A DNA stretch of 15,800 nt from a bacterium. Lineage in GTDB: Bacteria > Margulisbacteria > Marinamargulisbacteria > GCA-2716485 > JAYNIM01. The stretch is from contig JAYNIM010000002.1 in NCBI GenBank assembly GCA_038109055.1, positions 26,894-42,693 of the forward strand, in the 5' to 3' direction. Below the pieces are notes generated by a model, which was given only the letters and a program-made list of their open reading frames with translations, was not told the origin of the DNA and searched no databases. The position numbers and the translations under genes were made by a program. Positions 682-15,800 of this stretch are shown piece by piece (position 1 is the first letter of the stretch; each line of letters begins with the position of its first letter).

Positions 682-3600
682 TCAAACCCTAAAATAAGCC
701 GCTTGAGGATGCTGCAACACCAATGCCGACACCGACCCATCTGGATCCATCATATAATCATCGCATAGGTTTACCCCAATATGCTTATCAGGCGCAAACA
801 AATCCCATAATAAGCGCTGATAGGCCAAGTCTGGACAGGCTGGATAGCCAAAGGAATAACGCTTACCACGATACTGTAACTTAAACAGCTCTTCGCCCAT
901 TAGTTCTGGCGGATCTGCAAAGCCCCAAGTGGCACGCAGTTTTTGATGGGTATACTCAGCAAAGGCTTCGGCACATTCAAGCCCAATAGCATTGACAATA
1001 TGCGAAGCTAAAAACTGCTCATTTTTCTTTAACTCTTTGGCATAATCCAGTATTTCCTGACCCGATGTCACCACAAAAAAAGCAATGGTATCTACCCTGT
1101 CTGGATGAATAAAATCCGTAAGACAATACTGATAACCGCCTGGCTGTCTTGGGAAGGTAAAGCGCTGTAGTTCTGTTTTTTCGTCTTCGCTTAAAACAAT
1201 CATAGTTTCAGGCGACTTAGGATCGCGTTTCACCTTAAAAAACTGCGTCATTCCTTTCGGCTGACAGACCTTTTTGGCTATAAGTTGGGCTTTTATATCT
1301 TGTATTTGGGCGTCTAACTTCATGGCTTTGGGATTTTTCTCATCAAGTAATTTGCGTGCATTACCCTTTAAACCCAAATGATGACCATAGAGCATTTGTC
1401 TATTTATGTAAGGCCACAGTGTATCAAGGTCAGCTTCTATACATTGAACCTGATAGTGTTTTTTAGCAAGCTTTTTACTTTTAAAATCATAAGAAATTGT
1501 TTTTTCTTTAAGTTTAGCAGGTGCTTTTTTTGTGGCAGATAATTTGGTATCCGTTTGTCCGGGTTTGAAATTTTGTTGATACTGTTTAATAAAGTCCTCG
1601 CGCTTACCCGGTGTTTTATCCACCAAGTGATTCACCAAATCAAGCCCATGCATGGCATCTTTGGCATAAACAACCAAACCATCATACTCGGGCTGAATTT
1701 TATTGCTGGTAAAATTTTGAGTTAATGCAGCCCCTCCCACCAAAACAGGAATATCAATTCCTGCAGCTTTAAAATCCTTAACGGTTCCTACCATCTGCTG
1801 AGCCGATTTAACCAAGAGCCCCGACATCCCAATCACATCTGGCTTATGTTCTTTGGCGGCGGCAATCAGGGTTTCGGGCGGACATTTAATGCCTAAATCA
1901 ACGACCTTATAGCCATTATTAGACATAATAATATTGACTAAATTTTTACCAATATCATGGACATCGCCCTTAACTGTGGCAAGCACCATGGTGCCTTTTA
2001 AACTCATATCCCCTTTTTCCATTTTGGGTTCTAAATACGCAACTGCTGCTTTCATAACTTCTGCTGATTGCAAAACTTCCGCCACAATCAGTTCGTTATC
2101 ATTAAATAACTTGCCCACAATATCCATACCCGCCATCAGCGGAATATTAATCACATCCAAGGGTTTGTATTTTTTTAGTGCTTCATCTAAATTTTCAATG
2201 AGTTTTTCTTTGGTTCCTTCGACAATATTATATTCAAGCCGTTTTTCAACACTTAAATGAGACTGATCAACGGCTGTTTTCTCCACTGTTTTTTTACCTC
2301 TAAAATAGGCGGTGAAGTTGGCTACCGGATCATTGCCATTTTCGGTGCGATACCATAACAGATCATCACATAATTTTTTTTCTTCTTCTGTAATGGATGA
2401 AAAACGCACCAGTTTTTCTGAATTCACAATGGCTGTATCAAGCCCTGCTTTGACACAATGATGCAGGAATACCGAATTTAGAACTTCGCGTCCTGCATTG
2501 GGCAAACCAAAAGACACATTTGAAATGCCTAAGGTTGTACGTACTTTGGGATATTTTTGCTTAATTAAGCGCACGCCTTCAATGGTTTCAAAGCCTGAGC
2601 CAAAATAATTTTCATCGCCTGTTCCGCATGGAAACACCAATGGATCAAAGATAATATCTTCTTGAGCAATACCGTATTTTTGCGTTAATAAATCGTATGA
2701 ATGAATCGCAACTTTTAGTTTATCTGCCGCAGTGACGGCCATTTCACCTTCTATACAGCCCACAACAACAGCCGCCCCATATTTTTTCACCAAGGGCAAT
2801 AACTCTTCAAAGGATTTTTCGCCTTCTTCTAAATTAACCGAATTTAAAATACATTTTCCTTGAGTGAGTTTAAAGGCCTCTTCCACCACCTCGGGAACTT
2901 GAGAATCGATCATTAAAGGAGCCTTGGTCATTTTAGTCACTTTATTTAAAAAAGCGATCATGTCTTTCACTTCATCTCGATCTGGATTTGATAAACAGAC
3001 ATCAATAATATGCGCCCCAGCCTTGACTTGTTTTCGGGCAATTTCTGCCGCCTCATCAAACTGTTCAGCCTCGATCATTTGCTTAAATTTACGAGACCCA
3101 ATCACGTTGGTGCGTTCTCCAACAATATAAGGTCCATCATTGTCTGTCATCACCAAGGTTTCAATGCCTGAAATTCGTGATACACGCTGTGTGTTATTTT
3201 CACGAACAGCTTTATCTTTGGCTATATTTGCCAAAGCGGCAATGTGCTTGGGCGTGGTCCCGCAACAACCGCCCACCATATTGACCCATTTTTCATCAAT
3301 AAAAGACGCTAAAATACCTGCTAAGGCCTCTGGTCCTTCAGGATACACCCCTTCTTCATCCGGAATACCCGCATTGGGCACTACGGATACCGGAAAGGCC
3401 GAAATCTGTGAAAGTGTGCGGATATGATCGCGCATAAACTCGGGCCCTGTCGCACAATTAAGACCAATATAAAGCGGATTCATGTGTTCGACTGAGGTAT
3501 AAAAGGCTTCGACTGCCTGGCCGGCTAGCATGGTACCCATGGTTTCGATGGTACCTGAAATTGCAATGGGAATACTTGTTTTCAATTCACTAAAGGCGCG

Positions 3601-4143
3601 CAAAATGCCTGTATAACCTGCTTTTAAATTAAGGGTATCAAGCGCTGTTTCTAATAATAAAAAATCAGCCCCGGCTGCTACCAATGCTTTGGCTTGCTGG
3701 TAAAAAGAAAAAGCTAATTCATCAAAAGAAATCCCCCCTGTCACTGATAAAGCCTTCGTGGTAGGACCCATCGCCCCTGCCACAAAGCGGGGCTTTTCAG
3801 GGGTACTGTATTTATCACAGGCCGCACGGGCAAGCTGTACGGCTTTGGTGTTAATTTCCTCGACCAAGTCTTCCAGACCATATTCACCCAATACAAAGTT
3901 AGCTCCCCCAAAGGTATTGGTTTCTATAATATCAGCCCCCGCTTCTAAATAAGCTTCATGAACATCTTGGATGACATCTGGCCGAGTACGAACCAAGTTT
4001 TCATTACAGCCATCAAAAGCCTCACCACCAAAATCCTCTGGGCTTAAGTCGCGCTCTTGAAGAGCTGTGCCCATGGCACCGTCAAGGACAACAATTTTGT
4101 TTTTGAAAATATGGGTAATGTTATTGTTCATTTTTTTAGACAT
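682..4143 (-). CDS. metH: B12-dependent methionine synthase
   Basis: 1153 aa with all four modules: Hcy/Zn domain (LDGAMGT, LNCATGP, GGCCGT), pterin-binding domain (GERTNVIGS), cobalamin-binding motif (VKGDVHDIGKN, MSGLL) and SAM reactivation domain (RYSFGYPACPDL). The start could be the fifth codon (MNNN). Confidence 0.98.
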   Translation of the reverse strand: MSKKMNNNITHIFKNKIVVLDGAMGTALQERDLSPEDFGGEAFDGCNENLVRTRPDVIQDVHEAYLEAGADIIETNTFGGANFVLGEYGLEDLVEEINTKAVQLARAACDKYSTPEKPRFVAGAMGPTTKALSVTGGISFDELAFSFYQQAKALVAAGADFLLLETALDTLNLKAGYTGILRAFSELKTSIPIAISGTIETMGTMLAGQAVEAFYTSVEHMNPLYIGLNCATGPEFMRDHIRTLSQISAFPVSVVPNAGIPDEEGVYPEGPEALAGILASFIDEKWVNMVGGCCGTTPKHIAALANIAKDKAVRENNTQRVSRISGIETLVMTDNDGPYIVGERTNVIGSRKFKQMIEAEQFDEAAEIARKQVKAGAHIIDVCLSNPDRDEVKDMIAFLNKVTKMTKAPLMIDSQVPEVVEEAFKLTQGKCILNSVNLEEGEKSFEELLPLVKKYGAAVVVGCIEGEMAVTAADKLKVAIHSYDLLTQKYGIAQEDIIFDPLVFPCGTGDENYFGSGFETIEGVRLIKQKYPKVRTTLGISNVSFGLPNAGREVLNSVFLHHCVKAGLDTAIVNSEKLVRFSSITEEEKKLCDDLLWYRTENGNDPVANFTAYFRGKKTVEKTAVDQSHLSVEKRLEYNIVEGTKEKLIENLDEALKKYKPLDVINIPLMAGMDIVGKLFNDNELIVAEVLQSAEVMKAAVAYLEPKMEKGDMSLKGTMVLATVKGDVHDIGKNLVNIIMSNNGYKVVDLGIKCPPETLIAAAKEHKPDVIGMSGLLVKSAQQMVGTVKDFKAAGIDIPVLVGGAALTQNFTSNKIQPEYDGLVVYAKDAMHGLDLVNHLVDKTPGKREDFIKQYQQNFKPGQTDTKLSATKKAPAKLKEKTISYDFKSKKLAKKHYQVQCIEADLDTLWPYINRQMLYGHHLGLKGNARKLLDEKNPKAMKLDAQIQDIKAQLIAKKVCQPKGMTQFFKVKRDPKSPETMIVLSEDEKTELQRFTFPRQPGGYQYCLTDFIHPDRVDTIAFFVVTSGQEILDYAKELKKNEQFLASHIVNAIGLECAEAFAEYTHQKLRATWGFADPPELMGEELFKLQYRGKRYSFGYPACPDLAYQRLLWDLFAPDKHIGVNLCDDYMMDPDGSVSALVLQHPQAAYFRV

Positions 4144-4747: not shown

Positions 4748-5155
4748 ATGATCCTGTACTATGCACGTTTATTTTTACTCACCTTCATCGTCTTTTTTAG
4801 CATTGATATACTGTGGCTAGGCTTTATTGCACGTCGTTTATACCTGTATTTTTTAGGCCCCTTGTTAAGAGATCCTGTTAATTGGACCGCGGCTATACTC
4901 TTTTACATCTTATTTATCATCGGCCTGATTATTTTTGCCATAGAACCCGCCCTAAAACAACACTCGGTCACAAACGCTTTTATCAAAGGCGCCCTCTTCG
5001 GCTTCTTTACCTATATGACCTACGACCTTACAAACTTAGCCGTATTAAAAGACTGGCCAGTCGGGGTTGTCCTTATTGATATTTTATGGGGAACCATTCT
5101 CTGTTCCCTAGTCAGTGGCGTAAGCGTCTATATTTATTTAGCAATAAGCTCTTAA
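4748..5155 (+). CDS. DUF2177 family membrane protein
   Basis: 135 aa with about 4 hydrophobic segments. Motifs typical of DUF2177: IDILWLG, AAILFY, GALFGFFTYMTYDLTNLAVLKDWP, IDILWG. Confidence 0.88.
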   Translation: MILYYARLFLLTFIVFFSIDILWLGFIARRLYLYFLGPLLRDPVNWTAAILFYILFIIGLIIFAIEPALKQHSVTNAFIKGALFGFFTYMTYDLTNLAVLKDWPVGVVLIDILWGTILCSLVSGVSVYIYLAISS

Positions 5156-5159
5156 ACCA

Positions 5160-5741
5160 CTAACGAAACTCTAACGAGTTCAATGATCCCTCTTCGACAA
5201 AACAAACCTTTACAAATTGCAATTGACTCTTTTCAACAACAGGAGACAACTCAACCTTGCGACGGATTTTACCAAGACAAGAAAGTTCATCCCATAGAGG
5301 TTGCCCAGCAAATATCAAAGCCGTCCTCAAAGAAACATGAAAAACCTTCCATTCATCACTATCTTCTTTTAATTCACGCAATAGTTGATCACCAGAAGAA
5401 AAATGACAGTTATGAAACTGTACATCTACTAGTGGTTTTAGGCCTCGTTTACAAGAAACAGTCACATCAAGATGAAGTCGTGAATCCTTTTCTGGAGAAA
5501 AACATTTTATAGGCAAACCAGACAAAGTATCCGATTCAGAATTTCCCCCTTTACCTTGAACAAATACGTGAAATTTAAGAGAACCTACCAATGCACTATG
5601 AACCGATAAAGAACTTTTTCTAAAAGTGTCCCATCTTCCCACTCCTAAAGGTCCTCTCGAAACACCTCTTGGAAAACGTATAGAATTCACTAAAGGACTT
5701 AAAGGGCCTCCATAAATTACACCATTAAGTACTGAAAACAT
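5160..5741 (-). CDS. Hypothetical protein (193 aa from ATG 5741; the track gives TTG 5777)
   Basis: Long open frame with T/G-rich codon usage like the other minus-strand genes, converging on the DUF2177 gene with a 4-nt gap. No recognisable motif. The 12 codons upstream of ATG 5741 are low-complexity promoter-like DNA. Confidence 0.6.
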   Translation of the reverse strand: MFSVLNGVIYGGPLSPLVNSIRFPRGVSRGPLGVGRWDTFRKSSLSVHSALVGSLKFHVFVQGKGGNSESDTLSGLPIKCFSPEKDSRLHLDVTVSCKRGLKPLVDVQFHNCHFSSGDQLLRELKEDSDEWKVFHVSLRTALIFAGQPLWDELSCLGKIRRKVELSPVVEKSQLQFVKVCFVEEGSLNSLEFR

Positions 5742-5790
5742 GTAAAAAAAATACCATACAAAATAAAAAAGACACAATTAAACCCTAAAA

Positions 5791-5820
5791 TTGACAAACA
5801 ACTCTTTTTTAAGATAGCGT
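5791..5820 (+). promoter_or_regulatory. Sigma70 promoter for the riboswitch/btuB operon
   Basis: Perfect TTGACA (5791-5796), N18, TAGCGT (5815-5820). The predicted start at about 5826-5828 lies just before the riboswitch P1. Confidence 0.6.
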
Positions 5821-5830
5821 GTAAAATCAT

Positions 5831-5987
5831 TAACTAAGGTAGGGAAATTGGGTGTAAACCCCAGCTGGCCCGCAACCGTGTAGCAGATTGATGAATGATG
5901 CAAGCATCAAAACTGTGTAGTCGGAATGCCTACGTAAGTTAGATAAAAAATAATAAACCTTTCACTTCGTGGAAAAAGTTTAGGAGG
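5831..5987 (+). ncRNA. Cobalamin riboswitch, short class-II-like, probably controlling translation
   Basis: Core GGTAGGGAA-(T-loop hairpin TGGGTGTAAACCCCA)-GCTGGCCCGCAACCGTG...AGTCGGAATGCCTAC, closed by TAACT/AGTTA. The downstream P13 hairpin (5954-5982) has loop TTCGTGG able to kiss L5 CCGCAA and abuts the SD AGGAGG (5982-5987). It lies directly upstream of a BtuB-like gene. Confidence 0.9.
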
Positions 5988-5996
5988 TAGTTACGT

Positions 5997-8195
5997 ATGC
6001 TATATACGAACACAGCGTGTTGTTATACACGTATCAAAAAATGGGGGATCACAGCACTCATCCCAACCTTGTTGGCACTGCCAGTACAGGCCCAATCTCA
6101 GGCTGATTTTAAGCAAGCCTTAAAGAAAAAACAGCAGGCCATTGGTCAACAAAAGGTAAGTTTTACGGTAAAAGAATTGGAAGCCTTGGGAGTGCAAACC
6201 ATTGGAGAATCCATGGATGTTCTCACAAAGTTGGTTAATCCAGAGGCCGATGTCGATCAACAATCCGCATCTAGCAAACAAGTAAGCGGCGAAAATGGCG
6301 CTGATGTAACTGCGATCTTGTCTACCTTACGTTTAGATGACATTGATCGTATTGAAATTTCACGTGACGGTGAAAAAATTAAGTATCATGTCTCACGGGC
6401 AATTAGCAAAGATGGCGTAACGGCTACCTTTAGCTTTAGTATTATCGATGAACGCTTTAAACAATCAACGTTGGACCCTGTTGTAACGACGGCTACTAAA
6501 GTACCCCTGCGTCGTAGTGAGGTTGGGGATGTAATTCGGGTTCTCGAGGGTAAAGAATTAGAAACATTAGGGGTTACATCAGTAGAAGAGGCCCTCGCTT
6601 TAATAGGTGATGCAAGTATGTCTATAGGGAGCAACGAGAGCATATTTTTTAGAGGTTCGCACTCTGGCGCCACAAACGTTCTTTATAACGGCATTGATTT
6701 AAAAAACGTATCAGGAACAAATGGTGCACCTTTATTTAGACTAATCTCATTACAAGAGATTGACCGCATTGAAGTTATCTCTGGCTCTAGTAGCACCATA
6801 CAAGGGTCCAATTCATTAGGGGGTGTGATTAATATCATTTCCAAAGAAAATGATCATTCAAGTTTTGTACAAAGCCAGTTTGGTCCCGATCAGGTTGAAA
6901 CATCTGTCAGAGCGAGCAAGCAAATAGGTAACAGTAATATATATGTATTGGGTTCAAAACGTTATAACAACCAATTGTCAGCAAAAGCGGATAATACTGA
7001 AAGAGATCCTTTGGACAGACAGTCTTTAACGCTTGGAATAACTGATCAAAATTTAGGAATAGGGAAAGTCTCTGGTTTTATTTCTAAGATTGATGAAAAA
7101 ATTAATTTTGATGAAGGTGCCGATCACGCAGGCGTAAGTAAAATAAATAATGTATTAGCATCTATGCATTATCACCTGAGTGTATACCCTTATTCAAAAA
7201 CATCCCTTAGATGGTCATTTAATCAATCTGATCGTGAGTATTTTAATAAAGGCGTGAAAGGTAGAACATATCAAGGCTATTTATCGCAGCTAGATCTTAA
7301 TCACTTTGTATGTCTAAAAAACCAGCAAACGTTTTTATTAGGCCTAAACTATGGAACTGAAAAAGCAAGTTATAGCCACCCAATTTATACGATGGACAAT
7401 TTCAATGACAAAACAATGACACATACTGGTATTTACAGCCAATACAGATGGATCAATCCGCTGTTATCAACTCAACTTGGTGCACGCTATGAACACAATA
7501 ATCAATTGAAAGATGATCATGTATCTACTTATGATATATCGCTTTTCCGACAGATTCCGATTATGCAGAGTCTTCTAAAAATAACGCATAAAACAGGCAT
7601 AAGAACACCCTCCTTATATGAAGTAGCAAACAAAAAAATAGGCCTTGATGTAGAGGCAGAAAAATCTCATACAAATGAGGTTTCACTTGAGAAAAAACTT
7701 AATTCAGCAATCCTATACATGACATATTTTGAGACTAAATTAACAAATAAAATAGCCTATGATGATGGCAAATATTTTAACGTTAAATCATCTAAACAAC
7801 ATGGCCTAGTATATGGGACTGAACTTAAAAATGTAGGCCCCCTCAGCTTTATCAAGCTATCACGTAGTCATATTACAGCAAGAGACAACCAAGAGAGCGA
7901 ACAAAGCTTGCAAGTACCAGAAATAAAAACAGTGTTAACGACAGGAGTAAAAAAAGACAAGTGGACACTAGGTGCTTTATTTATTCATGAAAGTAAAAAA
8001 AGAGGATATATTGGCTGGAATATAGGTAATATACCTTCATATCATTATATCGATCTAAATCTGCAGTATCAGTTTAATAAAAAATTAACCATACATAGTA
8101 AAGTTCATAATGTTCTTGATGAAAGCTATCAAACAGTTGCTGGCTATAATGAACCCGGCCGTACACTCTACCTCGGGGCAAAATACTACTTCTAA
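5997..8195 (+). CDS. btuB: TonB-dependent outer-membrane receptor, probable cobalamin transporter (BtuB-like) with an N-terminal extension
   Basis: Signal peptide ending about VQA|Q (aa 32), TonB box TLDPVVTTATK (aa 158-168), plug motifs (FFRG, NVLYNG, IDRIEVISG, GGVINII) and barrel C-terminus NVLDESY...PGRTLYLGAKYYF. SD AGGAGG. B12 specificity is inferred from the riboswitch. Confidence 0.88.
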   Translation: MLYTNTACCYTRIKKWGITALIPTLLALPVQAQSQADFKQALKKKQQAIGQQKVSFTVKELEALGVQTIGESMDVLTKLVNPEADVDQQSASSKQVSGENGADVTAILSTLRLDDIDRIEISRDGEKIKYHVSRAISKDGVTATFSFSIIDERFKQSTLDPVVTTATKVPLRRSEVGDVIRVLEGKELETLGVTSVEEALALIGDASMSIGSNESIFFRGSHSGATNVLYNGIDLKNVSGTNGAPLFRLISLQEIDRIEVISGSSSTIQGSNSLGGVINIISKENDHSSFVQSQFGPDQVETSVRASKQIGNSNIYVLGSKRYNNQLSAKADNTERDPLDRQSLTLGITDQNLGIGKVSGFISKIDEKINFDEGADHAGVSKINNVLASMHYHLSVYPYSKTSLRWSFNQSDREYFNKGVKGRTYQGYLSQLDLNHFVCLKNQQTFLLGLNYGTEKASYSHPIYTMDNFNDKTMTHTGIYSQYRWINPLLSTQLGARYEHNNQLKDDHVSTYDISLFRQIPIMQSLLKITHKTGIRTPSLYEVANKKIGLDVEAEKSHTNEVSLEKKLNSAILYMTYFETKLTNKIAYDDGKYFNVKSSKQHGLVYGTELKNVGPLSFIKLSRSHITARDNQESEQSLQVPEIKTVLTTGVKKDKWTLGALFIHESKKRGYIGWNIGNIPSYHYIDLNLQYQFNKKLTIHSKVHNVLDESYQTVAGYNEPGRTLYLGAKYYF

Positions 8196-8228: not shown

Positions 8229-8777
8229 ATGCCAATGAACAAACAAAACCTAAATCTAAACAGCCCGCATCCCCTGATGTTGGCTGGGCTATTGATACTC
8301 GCAAGCCTTTGTCGCTTTCTACCTCATCCACCCAACTTCAGCCCCGTTATTGCTATTGCACTCTTATCCGTTGCCACCTTTAAGCAACGATACTTGCAAC
8401 TTGGCTTTCCTTTAACAATTATGCTCATAACCGACACCGTCTTAGGCCTTCATCGCCTCATGCCCGTCGTCTATCTTTCTCTTATAGGTGCTGCTTTAAG
8501 TGGCATCATACTCAAACAACACGTCTCCTTTTCACGCATGTTAGCGAGTAGCTTGCTTGCTTCTATAACCTTTTTTGCACTTAGTAACTTTGGTGTATGG
8601 ATCTATAGTACTAGTTATGCCAAATCATTAGCTGGCTTAATCAACTGCTACACTCTAGCACTGCCTTTTTTTCACCATACAGTCTTAGCAACAGTGGGCA
8701 CCGTAATGAGTATTTATGGCGTGCTGTACTTATCATCAAAAGTAGGAAATAAAAATGCTATCACAGCAAAACTGTGA
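8229..8777 (+). CDS. DUF6580 family putative transporter (solitary ECF S-component-like, BtuM-like; probable inner-membrane B12 uptake)
   Basis: 182 aa, about 6 hydrophobic segments, with motifs RFLPHPPNFSPVIAIAL, FFALSNFGVW and GLINCYTLALPFF. It starts 33 nt after btuB. Confidence 0.8.
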   Translation: MPMNKQNLNLNSPHPLMLAGLLILASLCRFLPHPPNFSPVIAIALLSVATFKQRYLQLGFPLTIMLITDTVLGLHRLMPVVYLSLIGAALSGIILKQHVSFSRMLASSLLASITFFALSNFGVWIYSTSYAKSLAGLINCYTLALPFFHHTVLATVGTVMSIYGVLYLSSKVGNKNAITAKL

Positions 8778-10434: not shown

Positions 10435-12300
10435 TTACCACAAACGCTTAAAAACCGTCTGAAAAAATCTAACTCCCTGCGGACTCAAAATTGATTCCGG
10501 ATGAAACTGAACACTATAAAAATGTGTCCCTTTCAAGGCATGAATCTCCTTATTTTTAAGATCATAGGCCACATCCACACCTTCTACATCCTCTTTAAAC
10601 CGTCCTACAAAGGTATTATAAAAGCCCATATTTACAGACTGCCCAAAAAGGTCTATGTTTTGCTGAACACCTTGATAAGGGCTCTCTTTGCACACAATCT
10701 CAATACCTAATTCAGCACACAAGACCTGATGCGACAAACATTCAGCAAAAAAGACTTTCTTCTCGCTTAACAAAGACATTAATAACTTCCGTAAACACTG
10801 TATTTTAGGAGATTGCAAATCCAAAGGATCCCCAGGGCCAGGCCCCAAAAATACCATATCCGCCCCCATCTCTTCGGGAATGATCTCCTGCCAAGACACT
10901 CGTTTAACTTTCAAGCCAATTTTTCGTAAAATCTGTTGAATCATAAAAGAAAAATCATCCTCAAAATCCACCAACAAAAGTGTTTTTCCACACAAACCCG
11001 CAACCTCATACGACTGTCCCTGCTGCGATTCCATCCAAAAACGCGACAATCGCTGATTACGTAGCATCAACGTTTGCTGACTCTCATCACTCAACAACGA
11101 TGGATAAGGTGTAGCAGGCAAACTCTGCTCAGCCGCTTCCATAGACCGAATCACACCTGCTAACTTTGCTTCGGTCTCTTTAACTTCATCTGCAGGTTTA
11201 GACGAACGAACCAAGGTTGCTCCAACCTGTGCCAAAAGATCCCCTTCCCGACTAATCTCCAACGACCGAATCGTAATAGGCGCGTCCAAAAACACCTCCC
11301 CTTCTTCATCTCGCCCAATCATCGCAATCATGGCTGAATAATAAGACCGTGACTCCTTTTCATAACGAGTCAACACGCGAAACGCATTTTGAATAGGGCT
11401 ACCCGTCACAGTCGGGGCATACATCGACGCCCGTAAAAGATCTGCTATACAATGTTCAGAGATCCCTCTTAATACATACTCTGTATGAATCAACTGCGCC
11501 ATCTCTTTTAAAAAGGGCCCTTCAATGGTTCCGCCTGATTCACAAATCTGACACATCATTTTAAGTTCTTCATCTGTCACCATAAACAACTCAAATATTT
11601 CTTTTTCATCCTGCAAAAAAGCCAGCAAATCAGCCTTTTGCTCAATCAAGCTCTTTGAATGATCCTTACGAAAGGTCCCACTAATAGGGTTCATACTAAC
11701 CCTGCCTTGATACATAGAAATATGACGTTCAGGAGACGCCCCCAAAATAAACTCTTCTCCATCATAAAACACATAGGTCCAATAAGCCCCATATTCATTC
11801 ACCAACAACGAACGAAAAATCGCCAAAACCTGTGCCAACACATCCCCTTTCAACGTAGCCGTCAAACGACGCGATATCACAAAATTAGCCCCTTCACCCC
11901 GACCAATTTCCTCTGAAATAATACGAGCTACAATCGCCTCATAGTCTTCACCACTCCAGTTATAAGAAAAATTTTCCAAGGTAACAGCAAGGGGCTTAAT
12001 ATCTTTACACACAGTTTCCAGAGACAAATAAGACTGATGTTCAACCTTCAAACGCTTTATTTTCTCGTTATCATCATGCACCTCAAAGCCTCGTTCTTTG
12101 GCCTGACAAAAAGGGATCAACTGAATCGAATCGACACTACCCTTAGAACATCCCTCATCAGGCAAACCAATCTCATCTAAGTGATCCAAAAAGCGAATCT
12201 CCCCATAACAACTCAACACACGCTCTTCAGAGCCCTTACGCAATAAAAAAAACGCTTTATCTCTTAATGTATCTACTAACATGGCTCTATATTCACTCAA
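10435..12300 (-). CDS. PhzE-like fused chorismate-binding (MST) + glutamine amidotransferase enzyme (ADIC synthase / anthranilate synthase family)
   Basis: PhzE-type motifs GEGANFVI, GAYWT, GASPERH, MNPISGT, ELFMVTDEELKMM, GPFLKEMA..HTEY, APTVTGSP and VGATLVR. C-terminal type-I GATase with GPGPGDP, CLSHQ and QFHPES. TTG start. Confidence 0.88.
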   Translation of the reverse strand: MSEYRAMLVDTLRDKAFFLLRKGSEERVLSCYGEIRFLDHLDEIGLPDEGCSKGSVDSIQLIPFCQAKERGFEVHDDNEKIKRLKVEHQSYLSLETVCKDIKPLAVTLENFSYNWSGEDYEAIVARIISEEIGRGEGANFVISRRLTATLKGDVLAQVLAIFRSLLVNEYGAYWTYVFYDGEEFILGASPERHISMYQGRVSMNPISGTFRKDHSKSLIEQKADLLAFLQDEKEIFELFMVTDEELKMMCQICESGGTIEGPFLKEMAQLIHTEYVLRGISEHCIADLLRASMYAPTVTGSPIQNAFRVLTRYEKESRSYYSAMIAMIGRDEEGEVFLDAPITIRSLEISREGDLLAQVGATLVRSSKPADEVKETEAKLAGVIRSMEAAEQSLPATPYPSLLSDESQQTLMLRNQRLSRFWMESQQGQSYEVAGLCGKTLLLVDFEDDFSFMIQQILRKIGLKVKRVSWQEIIPEEMGADMVFLGPGPGDPLDLQSPKIQCLRKLLMSLLSEKKVFFAECLSHQVLCAELGIEIVCKESPYQGVQQNIDLFGQSVNMGFYNTFVGRFKEDVEGVDVAYDLKNKEIHALKGTHFYSVQFHPESILSPQGVRFFQTVFKRLW

Positions 12301-12330: not shown

Positions 12331-15300
12331 CTAGAAAACATTAAGCGTACCATAACAAATAATAGCGCCTTTCACTGTTTGTGAGCCTAAAGGCCCTCGA
12401 TAAAAAGAAAGACCCTGAATTAAAAAAACATCCCCTCTATGATGAATATCTAAAGCTTCAGAAATAAAAAAAGACATTTGTTTAGATTGATCAACACATA
12501 TCACCTTTTGTATCTTCTCATCTTTCTTAGAAATAAAAACTGTCCAATCTCCCACACAATAAACACAATCCTCTTCACGTGAATGTTTAGTAAGTAACAT
12601 ATGTAAAAACCAATATACCCGTGGCGTGTACTCTTTCTTAGACGCTGATTTTGGATGATATGTATTTTCACATGAAATCTTACTAAAATTCCCTTGATCT
12701 TCTAATATGAATGGATCTCTTCCCGACAACATCACATAATTTTGTTGATAAAACACGTCTTGACCAGATAAAGAATAAACAACAACACGACTCCCAACAC
12801 TTATTTTTAAAAGGCTATAATCTGTATATATCTGAAGTGACACATCTCCTCCATTCAAAATAGCTTCCTGTAAGCGCGGAATATTAAAGGCTGATTGTAA
12901 AAAAGAGCTGATCTTATCTAACTCCTTGCTTGGTGTTTTACGTACACCCGTTTCAAGCTCAGTCATCCACGCATCCCGTTGATCACGTGTATCCCTATTT
13001 AACTGTTGATTTTCTTTTATGACCGCCACTGCCATAGAACTAATATACGCTTTTAACTCTGATGTTATTGAACGATTTTCTTCCTGCTCTAAATGATGAA
13101 TAATGCACAAATACCTTTCCATTCTCTGAACTTTTGTCAACTCCGTTTTCTTATCTTTTATCAACTCATCCAGCAAGCCCTTTAAAAACCGCTGAAGAAA
13201 AAGGACTTTCGAATTTTCCAACGATTTTATAAACAAATTTATCAATAAAATAAGACTCTTGCCTGTCACATTTTTCCACAAGCTAATTAACCACTTTAAT
13301 TGTGTATCATCTGCATAATTCCCATAAAAAGATGTTAATGGTATTAATGACTCATCTTTAACAGCTTTTAAATATTTAACAGCCTCATGACACATCCCCA
13401 CATGATCAGCCAGTGTTAACGCCTCATCCTGAATTAATCTAACAAGCTGTTGCCCAAATAACTCCGACACACTTTGTGTATAATCTTTGTGATCAGAAAC
13501 ATACATAGTCTGAACTATATTTCCGAAAGATTCCAAACATCTTTTAAACCCTTTCGAAGTTGTTTGCTGGCTAAGAAAAAGACTTAAAATCTCTTCATTA
13601 AATAAGACACCATTAAAAGGTTCATTTTCATTTGAATCAAATCGTTGTTGAATAATACAGGCCGAAATTGCCTGATTATCTAAAGGTAATTGACTTCCCT
13701 TTAAATATGGCACCAATTCTAAAGAATTCAGACTAATCGTTTGTCCCTTAAGCTTTAAAAAATGCAATCTTTCAAAAGGAACATCCTTAACGTCAATCAA
13801 AGCTAATACATCTTGAGAAACTGAGCATAAATCATGATCGTCATCAAGACGAGCAAAGAAAGCTTCTAAACGTTGAACAGAGCTAATCAATTGGCAAAAA
13901 ACAGCATGTTCCTTAAAATAACACTTACCTAATGTAAGCACACCTTTTAAGGTCATGTCATTTATTAAGGTCGTTTCAATTTTTAAGGGCTTGTCCTTTG
14001 AAAGACTATCATTGCCATACAACAAAGCTTTAAAACGTTGATGAAACCTCCTATCAAACGTTTGATGATCAAAATCAACAAAACACTCATCTAACAATCT
14101 AACTTTATCTGCCACCCTATCCAAAAACCTTGTTCCATCAATACAAAAATTCAAAGGGAACTGCCGAACTACATCCAAGGAACCAGAGGATATAGAAGAT
14201 ACAGAAAATGTCACATCCGCTAAATCCGTCTCAATAAGATTCTTAACAGCACTGTAAGGCTCCTGTGGTTTTTTAGTCTCTGTTGGTTTAGCTACTTGTA
14301 AAGCAACTTCTTCTTGTGCAGCTTGTTTTATACGACTTTGAGATAATTGTGCATAACCTAAAATCTGCTGAATAAGATCCTTATTATGCCAACCAAAACA
14401 TTTATCTGAATATAAAAACTTCATAGCTTTTTCACAATACGAATGAAACGAAGAATCCAAAAACCGTTCCTCTGCAATAGCCTCCATAAACTTTATCCAA
14501 GACTTCCAATTGTCACTAAATAATAATCGTCTATCTACAGAACCGTTAACCCTAGCTTTTTCATCCAGCAAAAATCCCCGAATATGAATATAGGAAGACC
14601 CGATAGATGTTGATACCAACAAAAAATCCTGAATATGCCTATACGAACACCCTATAGATATTGATGCTAGCAAAAAATCCCGAATATGATTAACTAAGCA
14701 ATCTTTAATCATTGACGCCATCAAAAACTCCTCAATAGACTCATTAGAACACGCTTGAGATATTGACGCCTTCCATAAATTCCAACTACGCTTATCAGAA
14801 CACGCATTAATTATGCAAGCTTTCCATAAAGTAAGTTGTTTTGATTTTAAAGTAGATGAAAAACCCAATTCTTGAGAATTAGATAGTTTTGATTTTAAAG
14901 TAGATATTGACTCTTGAAATTCAATCAGAAGTTTAGCAAAAGAGTCATCTAATTTTTGAGAATCCTGTTGAGAATCAAGGCTTATATCAGCACCTATTAC
15001 AACTGCAAACGTATGTTTATGTGTCTGATTAGATAAATCAAGTAAACGATCCAGAGACTTAAAAAACGATGTTAAATATGAACAAAAAGAATCTTTATCT
15101 TCCTTCGAACTACAGAAAAAAAAAGTGCGTAAAGTATGGATAAAAAACAAAGAGCCAGGTTGAAAAAAAAGAGTGAATCGAGTCAATGATCCTCCAGTAA
15201 CTTCTTTAGCCACCCCACGTCCTAGTTTCTGTGATTTAATTGTTTTTATTGCTAAATTAACTAAATTGAACTGATCTAGTATTCTTTTACTAACTTTCAA

Positions 15301-15800
15301 CGAAGAAAATAAATCAAATGAATGAAGAGTTGCATATATTAAAATTTCTAAAACAACATCACCACTAATAACAAGTTCCTTTTGTTCACATCCCTCATAA
15401 ATCCCCCTCAATTCTTGCTTATTTGTATCAGTTTGCTCAATGCTATCTAATGCAAATAATAATAAACTAAAAAAAACATGTTTTTGTTTAATATCAGAAT
15501 CAGCATTTATTAAATTCAATACTTCTTTAATATCATTTACAGTAACAGTCCGCTGATCTACATTTTTTAATAAAGAAAGAAACGATCTTTTTGTTTGTTC
15601 ATTCAGACCGTCAGAATCAAAAGCCCATTTTTTAATATACGCTTGAAGTTGTTCAGTCAAATACATATGTATCACCTCATCCTCTTTACAGCCTACAGAT
15701 GCGGGTACGGGTACGGGTACGGGTACGGGTACGGGTACGGGTGCGGGTGCGGGTACGGGTGCGGGTGCGGGTGCGGGTGCGGGTGCGGGTGCGGGTGCGG
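12331..15800 (-). CDS. Large hypothetical protein; frame open to the window edge, so probably 5'-truncated (alternative start ATG 15666)
   Basis: There is no stop upstream of the track's GTG 15675: the frame continues ...PAPAPVPVPVPASVGCKEDEVIHMYLTEQ. GAGGTG 6 nt before ATG 15666 could alternatively be an SD. Mostly helical-looking, with no recognised domain. Confidence 0.8.
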   Translation of the reverse strand, partial: APAPAPAPAPAPAPVPAPAPVPVPVPVPVPVPASVGCKEDEVIHMYLTEQLQAYIKKWAFDSDGLNEQTKRSFLSLLKNVDQRTVTVNDIKEVLNLINADSDIKQKHVFFSLLLFALDSIEQTDTNKQELRGIYEGCEQKELVISGDVVLEILIYATLHSFDLFSSLKVSKRILDQFNLVNLAIKTIKSQKLGRGVAKEVTGGSLTRFTLFFQPGSLFFIHTLRTFFFCSSKEDKDSFCSYLTSFFKSLDRLLDLSNQTHKHTFAVVIGADISLDSQQDSQKLDDSFAKLLIEFQESISTLKSKLSNSQELGFSSTLKSKQLTLWKACIINACSDKRSWNLWKASISQACSNESIEEFLMASMIKDCLVNHIRDFLLASISIGCSYRHIQDFLLVSTSIGSSYIHIRGFLLDEKARVNGSVDRRLLFSDNWKSWIKFMEAIAEERFLDSSFHSYCEKAMKFLYSDKCFGWHNKDLIQQILGYAQLSQSRIKQAAQEEVALQVAKPTETKKPQEPYSAVKNLIETDLADVTFSVSSISSGSLDVVRQFPLNFCIDGTRFLDRVADKVRLLDECFVDFDHQTFDRRFHQRFKALLYGNDSLSKDKPLKIETTLINDMTLKGVLTLGKCYFKEHAVFCQLISSVQRLEAFFARLDDDHDLCSVSQDVLALIDVKDVPFERLHFLKLKGQTISLNSLELVPYLKGSQLPLDNQAISACIIQQRFDSNENEPFNGVLFNEEILSLFLSQQTTSKGFKRCLESFGNIVQTMYVSDHKDYTQSVSELFGQQLVRLIQDEALTLADHVGMCHEAVKYLKAVKDESLIPLTSFYGNYADDTQLKWLISLWKNVTGKSLILLINLFIKSLENSKVLFLQRFLKGLLDELIKDKKTELTKVQRMERYLCIIHHLEQEENRSITSELKAYISSMAVAVIKENQQLNRDTRDQRDAWMTELETGVRKTPSKELDKISSFLQSAFNIPRLQEAILNGGDVSLQIYTDYSLLKISVGSRVVVYSLSGQDVFYQQNYVMLSGRDPFILEDQGNFSKISCENTYHPKSASKKEYTPRVYWFLHMLLTKHSREEDCVYCVGDWTVFISKKDEKIQKVICVDQSKQMSFFISEALDIHHRGDVFLIQGLSFYRGPLGSQTVKGAIICYGTLNVF
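14566..14838 (-). repeat. Degenerate 51-nt (17-aa) coding tandem repeat, about 5.3 units
   Basis: QLTLWKACIINACSDKR / SWNLWKASISQACSNES / IEEFLMASMIKDCLVNH / IRDFLLASISIGCSYRH / IQDFLLVSTSIGSSYIH / IRGFLL. An adjacent exact 20-nt repeat GTTTTGATTTTAAAGTAGAT lies at 14838-14857 and 14886-14905. Confidence 0.85.
15700..15800. repeat. Hexamer microsatellite (TRCGGG)n, at least 16 units, running off the window
   Basis: TGCGGG x1, TACGGG x6, TGCGGG x2, TACGGG x1, TGCGGG x6 plus a partial unit. On the minus strand it encodes Pro-Ala/Pro-Val. Confidence 0.98.

Follow-up and report, generated by a model that had tools for sequence, protein, structure and literature searches.

A BtuB-like TonB-dependent receptor of the Marinamargulisbacteria with a front domain that probably arose from its own plug

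The stretch of DNA analysed here (the window) comprises 15,800 nucleotides from a member of the Marinamargulisbacteria, whose genome assembly (G000) is 1.8 Mb in size and 93% complete. It encodes a TonB-dependent receptor with an additional domain preceding its TonB box, and the receptor gene and its relevant neighbours are laid out as follows:

682..4143 (-): MetH, the B12-dependent methionine synthase (Pfam)
5829..5939 (+): probable cobalamin riboswitch, AdoCbl-II-like (26.9 bits, E 3.4e-4, below the Rfam gathering score of 36.5)
5997..8195 (+): BtuB-like TonB-dependent receptor, 732 aa (Pfam Plug and barrel)
5997..6092 (+): predicted signal peptide, aa 1-32 (by eye: a basic and then a hydrophobic run that closes with VQA)
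6156..6362 (+): plug-derived part of the extension, aa 54-122, with a strand, two helices, a variable loop, a helix and the IDRIE strand (hhalign, Pfam Plug, modelled secondary structure)
6363..6455 (+): conserved beta-hairpin of the extension, aa 123-153, not plug-derived by sequence (model, conservation)
6468..6494 (+): TonB box TLDPVVTTA, aa 158-166, also the upstream border of the swapped cassette (start of the BtuB alignment, identity break between L029 and L030)
6519..6827 (+): true plug domain, aa 175-277 (PF07715, E 1.3e-15)
6849..8192 (+): beta-barrel, aa 285-732, exchanged between strains along with the plug (PF00593, model, regional identities, AU tests)
8229..8777 (+): DUF6580 membrane protein, likely a solitary ECF S-component for cobalamin (PF20221, E 7.7e-41)

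The receptor possesses a plug, a TBDT barrel and a TonB box, and its nearest relative by both sequence and fold is BtuB. BtuB was the best match in a sequence search of the PDB (E 9e-16), with aa 158 pairing with BtuB residue 4, and the receptor model superimposes on it with a Z-score of 45.0 and an rmsd of 1.9 A over 535 residues, BtuB also being the top match in Foldseek. The best-scoring NCBIfam family is TonB-B12 (TIGR01779), at 118.5 bits against a cut-off of 599.7 that is not reached, and the same holds for NF007926 (98.7 bits against 836). Like E. coli BtuB, the protein combines plug, barrel and TonB box with a B12 context in the form of a riboswitch-like leader and metH. Unlike in E. 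coli BtuB, to which it is 19% identical, the alignment begins only at model residue ~109 (aa 158), the front domain of ~100 aa has no counterpart there, and no partner of the BtuF/BtuC families was found in the window's genome. We consider the receptor to be a BtuB-like transporter, likely for cobalamin, the transport itself being putative. The order metH, leader, receptor and DUF6580 is repeated across the extension-bearing loci, in most of which metH is divergent from the receptor. Of 17 loci scanned, one (the homologous locus L031) gave an AdoCbl match above the gathering score. No promoter or terminator consensus was found at 5700-6050.

Certain other elements of the window are recorded here in their own right. 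A 205-aa ORF without a significant Pfam match (5160-5777, -) sits between metH and the receptor, and together with a DUF2177 gene (4748-5155) it parts these two genes, which are adjacent in relatives. Farther downstream lie a single protein in which chorismate-binding and glutamine amidotransferase domains are fused (10435-12300, -), presumably of the TrpE(G)/PhzE type by its architecture, and a 1114-aa ORF without a Pfam or NCBIfam match (12331-15675, -), with another long ORF just past the window's end. At the opposite end, the start of a glutamine-rich repeat ORF (1-290, -; 54-bp unit, 4.6 copies) runs into an N gap, a second Gln-rich repeat protein is found just beyond the window edge, and a Leu-rich ORF on the + strand (8-292) is the shadow of the first. 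Positions 15700-15800 are occupied by a (TGCGGG)n hexamer array of 16.8 copies that leads into a scaffold gap.

An earlier note, made from the letters of this DNA, had proposed that about 125 aa located between signal peptide and TonB box constitute a second, degenerate plug. The four motifs cited for this repeat are indeed found at aa 59-76, 186-203, 97-122 and 239-262 of the ORF at 5997-8195, and the self-alignment suggested as a check, of aa 33-157 against aa 158-283, is significant, with a local score of 71. This score was matched by none of 5000 shuffles on either side (maxima 57 and 60) and by none of 5000 window-10 shuffles (maximum 65); when the extension was aligned with the whole rest of the receptor, none of 3000 shuffles was as high (maximum 69). 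With a lower gap penalty, one of 5000 shuffles reached the self-alignment score. At the DNA level the repeat between extension and plug is not significant, 103 of 1000 shuffles being as high, from which it follows that the internal repeat is old. One of the proposed correspondences did not survive: the SGENGA/SGTNGA match needs a gap in the alignment and occurs in just 2 of the 19 extension copies, namely that of the window and its 90% relative, and is probably a chance resemblance and no feature of the family. Similarly, a domain is present before the TonB box, but its folded part spans aa ~54-153 rather than the entire ~125 aa, and aa 33-53 are not conserved. The architecture is not a product of misassembly: a contig from a second study bridges the junction without gaps (6168-6663, with 6 differences over the extension, the TonB box and the plug), the receptor gene is unchanged in two runs of the source study that cover it, and the same arrangement recurs in other genomes.

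The proposal that the extension originated by an internal duplication of the plug is supported by the agreement of this self-alignment with profile-profile comparison, a genome-wide profile search, motif spacing and a joint tree. The extension aligns with the family's own plug at an hhalign probability of 97.5 and an E-value of 8.3e-12 over 76 columns. The Pfam Plug model (PF07715) is recovered at E<=0.1 in the extensions of 14 of the 19 members (best 1.9e-4); one copy (P0013) scores 20.9 bits relative to a gathering score of 23.9. The window's own extension has no Plug match, and it reaches neither the gathering score nor the full set of FRG, LxxG, IERIE and GGVINI. Two of these, FRG and GGVINI, are both absent in the alignment, as had been claimed for the copy. 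In a search of 146 genomes, the extension profile drew in 6 extensions, and its sole other 7 matches were true plugs from the BtuB proteins of the same clade. A profile built from 18 of the 19 rows, which was used both for scoring plug preference and for residue conservation, gave on average 24.7 bits on the plugs of the same receptors (n=19), 15.8 on those of extension-less Margulisbacteria BtuB proteins (n=13) and 2.1 on other TBDTs (n=103). The conserved middle link is YxG (or NQG), the counterpart of the plug's LYNG; it is seen in 12 of 19 copies and lost in that of the window. The spacing from G to IE is 26 residues in all 11 YxG extensions and all 11 plugs measured. In the joint tree (55 rows and 84 columns, by a quick method, with five extension-bearing rows omitted for being near-duplicates, fragmentary or long-branched), the 14 extensions group in a single clade (SH-aLRT 93) nested within the plugs of the same order (90). 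It should be noted that the extension family alignment is shallow, with ~20 rows, many of them close kin.

Profile searches do not assign the extension to another known domain. A search of the kind proposed in the earlier note, with AMIN added, found the STN, carboxypeptidase-regulatory and AMIN models in none of the 19 members at E<=0.1, and a PDB sequence search with the extension profile gave chance matches (best E 0.52). A match to DUF7355 in 2 of the 19 members (E 0.011-0.05) lies below the cut-off and was treated as chance. To judge from these comparisons, the front domain very probably originates from the plug, and a single duplication within the lineage would be the simplest reading of its origin. 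Thus the plug origin in the original proposal stands, but not the description as a degenerate plug throughout: the ~30 C-terminal residues are not plug-derived by sequence and the fold match is within noise, and the extension is a plug-derived hybrid rather than a second working plug.

AlphaFold2 predicts the extension to be folded both within the full receptor (pLDDT 89.9) and alone (pLDDT 78, pTM 0.70). The model contains a strand (53-57), two helices (58-63 and 69-80), a disordered loop (~85-98), a further helix (104-109) and a strand (116-122). Disorder of the extension, which would have spoken against the proposal, is therefore not borne out, the predicted fold being compact with only its middle loop disordered. 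The succeeding hairpin (predicted strands aa 128-138 and 141-151, pLDDT ~90) occupies the place of the plug's GGVINI strand and is the best-conserved part, with Y130 and K138 present in 18 of 18 rows and H131, A143 and F147 in 17 of 18. Its profile has no match to the rest of the receptor, so that a barrel-strand remnant was rejected as its source. When it was compared with a decayed signal peptide, the best score was 5.3 bits, on the window's own signal peptide, as against 2.3 for shuffles. Structural comparison was likewise suggested as a check of the resemblance between extension and plug, and it did not confirm a plug fold: Foldseek gave no PDB match at E<=0.001 (nor any in BFVD at the same threshold), and the FyuA plug, the only TBDT among the best 50 listed, was retrieved at a within-noise Z of 3.2 (rmsd 3.8 A, 73 residues), below unrelated rows that reach 4.4. 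In this wide search, whose best row (Z 4.4) is at the noise level, no chain among 48,161 attained Z>=5, and no STN, NTE or AMIN structure was present among the best 50 listed. In the Atlas, a Plug cluster was both the third feature match (0.90) and the top structure match, the latter with a TM-score of 0.56, below the Atlas bar.

Homologues with the same architecture, for which a search had been suggested, do exist in other genomes, the extension being found in 6 of the 146 genomes of the phylum. All six belong to the Marinamargulisbacteria: besides the window's genome they comprise G003, G008, G011, G012 and G047, of which four belong to family f4 of the same order and G047 to the same class. 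A search of 1.84 billion representatives yielded 17 matches, 14 of them true relatives (full receptors or fragments); the other three (P0016, P0017 and P0020) were discarded as long repeat proteins whose scores add up from short stretches. In a profile search among longer proteins all 13 matches were Plug-bearing receptors. In relatives such as G006 the locus is the same, and the BtuB encoded there begins with the TonB box. Two peculiarities were observed in individual genomes: in G003 an in-frame TAA early in the extension (L003:3544-3546, -) marks either a broken copy or an assembly error, and in G010 a BtuB of the same family (L016:3-1205, -) has a low-complexity stretch of ~45 residues between signal peptide and TonB box, which is not the plug-derived domain.

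Comparison of individual receptors revealed that the extension and the remainder of the protein have different histories. Relative to the window's protein, the identities in extension, plug and barrel are 90%, 44% and 27% for P0004 and 44%, 71% and 49% for P0005. The mean pairwise identity is 39.8% for the extension as against 29.2% for the barrel. At the DNA level, loci L029 and L030 share 93-100% identity in the upstream DNA and the extension (98-100% over the extension proper); identity falls to 35-69% over plug and barrel (L029:3200-4900), directly past the LDPVV codons, rises in the final ~160 bases of the gene and is 89-99% beyond the stop. The comparison of L031 with L030 shows the reverse, with 51% in the extension and 93% in the plug. 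Groupings based on the extension are rejected in AU tests on plug and barrel (p-AU 0.013 and 0.0004; 0.0035 and 6e-54), these groupings having been named once the plug and barrel trees had been seen. Taken together, the regional identities and AU tests show that plug and barrel are exchanged, whereas the extension and the TonB box remain with the chromosome. The exchange takes place as a unit among near-identical strains, the breakpoints lying at the TonB box and close to the C-terminus. Phages or cobamide selectivity are plausible drivers of this exchange; one literature listing contained nothing specific on either.

The extension is kept by purifying selection. Its dN/dS values are 0.04-0.26, compared to 0.06-0.35 for the plug, over five pairs, in several of which dS is near saturation, and its invariant residues include the polar T68, E120, Y130 and K138. 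These observations bear on the idea that the extension is a relic, that is, a tolerated remnant of a tandem duplication which is folded just to avoid harm and is carried as a conserved 5' arm for swaps. The restriction to one lineage, the decay of the copy's middle in 7 of 19 rows and the early stop in G003 would all be compatible with such a remnant. However, its dN/dS is as low as that of the working plug, its mean pairwise identity exceeds that of the barrel, and its invariant positions include polar ones; we consequently hold the relic to be quite improbable.

The gene that follows the receptor, DUF6580, offers a context for the function of the receptor. Its product shows a weak profile match to chain 6fnp_A (E 0.055), 6FNP being the ECF-CbrT structure (PMC5997447). 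Its Atlas clusters are auto-named 'ECF transporter S component', and the family has an invariant RxxPHPPN motif, H75, C140 and a PFFH motif. We consider it a candidate, and likely, solitary cobalamin S-component; a literature search on DUF6580 found nothing relevant. The 93% complete G000 has no match to the BtuF, EcfT, MetE, CobS or FecR (PF04773) families, and no FecR lies beside the receptor gene. Absence of the first four suggests that the organism is likely to depend on B12 uptake, and we infer it to be a B12 auxotroph that imports the vitamin via the receptor and DUF6580. A FecCD match in this genome was rejected as btuC, the operon reading by inspection as a Mn/Zn (Tro-type) ABC system. 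Among the 28 genomes examined, many of them incomplete, DUF6580 is present in 11 and the BtuF family in 9, and both occur in one (G048).

This distribution also allows us to evaluate the suggestion in the earlier note that, with no btuF in the window, the extension might hand cobalamin on to the inner membrane. Under this proposal, the extension would hold cobalamin in the periplasm, or act as an adaptor there, and pass B12 on from BtuB to DUF6580 in BtuF's place. The lack of btuF extends to the entire G000 assembly, where it coincides with the probable need for B12 uptake, and all six extension genomes have DUF6580 and no PF01497 match; the near-invariant Tyr-His pair in the hairpin would provide a conserved feature for such a role. 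The proposal is nevertheless weakened by relatives that manage without the domain: in G006, G027 (95% complete) and G052, DUF6580 occurs alongside an extension-less BtuB and no BtuF match is found, which does not favour a hand-off. Furthermore, aa 94-103, the copy of the plug loop that lies on the ligand side in BtuB, are variable, the commonest residue being present in just 4-7 of 18 rows, and are predicted to be disordered in the window's copy. A domain tethered to the outer membrane would also lie far from the inner membrane. In one study, BtuM allowed a btuF/btuC/metE strain to grow in a B12-dependent manner in the absence of any such domain (PMC6072759). The hand-off is thus, in our opinion, improbable.

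We favour a role at the TonB box instead. We envisage that BtuB would import B12 on TonB energy, DUF6580 would carry it across the inner membrane and MetH would use it, with the ~100-residue front domain, the likely outcome of one old self-duplication of the plug and a new beta-hairpin, sitting beside the TonB box. Given that the domain works with cores 50-70% apart, close and specific binding to the plug or barrel is unlikely, and its conserved face would more probably meet something constant, such as the TonB box, TonB or another host protein. Signalling is unlikely, as there is no FecR match. By analogy, we would give an even chance to the extension being a periplasmic cap or handle beside the TonB box rather than a B12 binder. 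[quoted passage not shown] In addition, relatives whose TonB is of the same kind and whose locus matches apart from the missing extension (G006) indicate that it is not needed in principle. G000 has two TonB systems, and a predicted complex of the extension with the C1 TonB C-terminal domain scored 0.00 in two runs (mark 0.32), with unfolded controls, so that it counts neither way. Both TonB proteins of G000 are short (L036:1231-1737 and L035:1150-1740, 169 and 197 aa), as are those of many relatives with or without the extension.

The tolerance of such divergent cores would equally fit a non-specific, chaperone-like role, in which the extension would aid folding, export or stability of the receptor, as has been suggested for the SusC NTE. 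There, deletion of the NTE stopped growth at 25-50% expression, which its authors ascribe to biogenesis or a cellular function (PMC7782687). Against this analogy, the extension is unlike the Ig-like NTE in both fold and origin, and the same receptor is assembled without it in close relatives, and we consider a role in biogenesis unlikely. An additional reading, which we regard as having a rather low probability, is that the plug-built extension would be a fixed host-side adaptor, linking exchangeable plug-barrel cassettes with the TonB motor or directly with the solitary S-component. If so, this would amount to a two-protein route of B12 uptake without a periplasmic carrier, in which the outer face of the receptor would be replaceable wholesale under phage or cobamide-choice pressure. 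It may be, however, that the extension stays in place simply because recombination uses it as the upstream homology arm; the pattern would then be the same with no need of a host link.

Among related systems, the STN transducers (FecA, FpvA and FoxA; PF07660) likewise have a small periplasmic alpha/beta domain right before the TonB box (PMC11658791, PMC6699858). They differ in that none of the 19 members here has an STN match, no FecR match is seen in the genome and the present domain is probably plug-derived. The SusC/Oar-type NTE (PF13715/PF13620) is also an extra domain of similar size before the TonB box (PMC7782687, PMC1790865); it is all-beta and Ig-like, whereas the extension is modelled as three helices with a four-strand arrangement and has no Pfam match to these families. 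As for the wider locus, an S-component-like membrane protein beside btuB, without BtuCDF, is shared with the BtuB plus BtuM/CbrT uptake systems (PMC6072759, PMC5997447). Here the partner is DUF6580, which has no PDB sequence match to BtuM and whose transport function we infer. The known extensions of TonB-dependent transporters, as far as the available portions of the literature go, are of the STN/transducer and Oar/carboxypeptidase-regulatory types (PMC7782687, PMC1790865, PMC11658791), with one atypical Xanthomonas extension noted, its nature unstated (PMC1790865). A literature search for a duplicated or second plug, with most subscription papers outside its reach, found nothing relevant, and the main text of PMC6349859 contains no reference to B12, TonB or BtuB.

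The plug-derived extension is thus a further type beside the STN and Oar/carboxypeptidase-regulatory ones, confined to one lineage. It offers a clear case of a new domain arising, in all likelihood, from partial self-duplication. It provides a natural test, by deletion, of the effect that non-signalling domains upstream of the TonB box have on the engagement of TonB. The locus further singles out DUF6580 as a candidate S-component for B12, and illustrates how plug and barrel are replaced together in streamlined marine bacteria that are apparent B12 auxotrophs.
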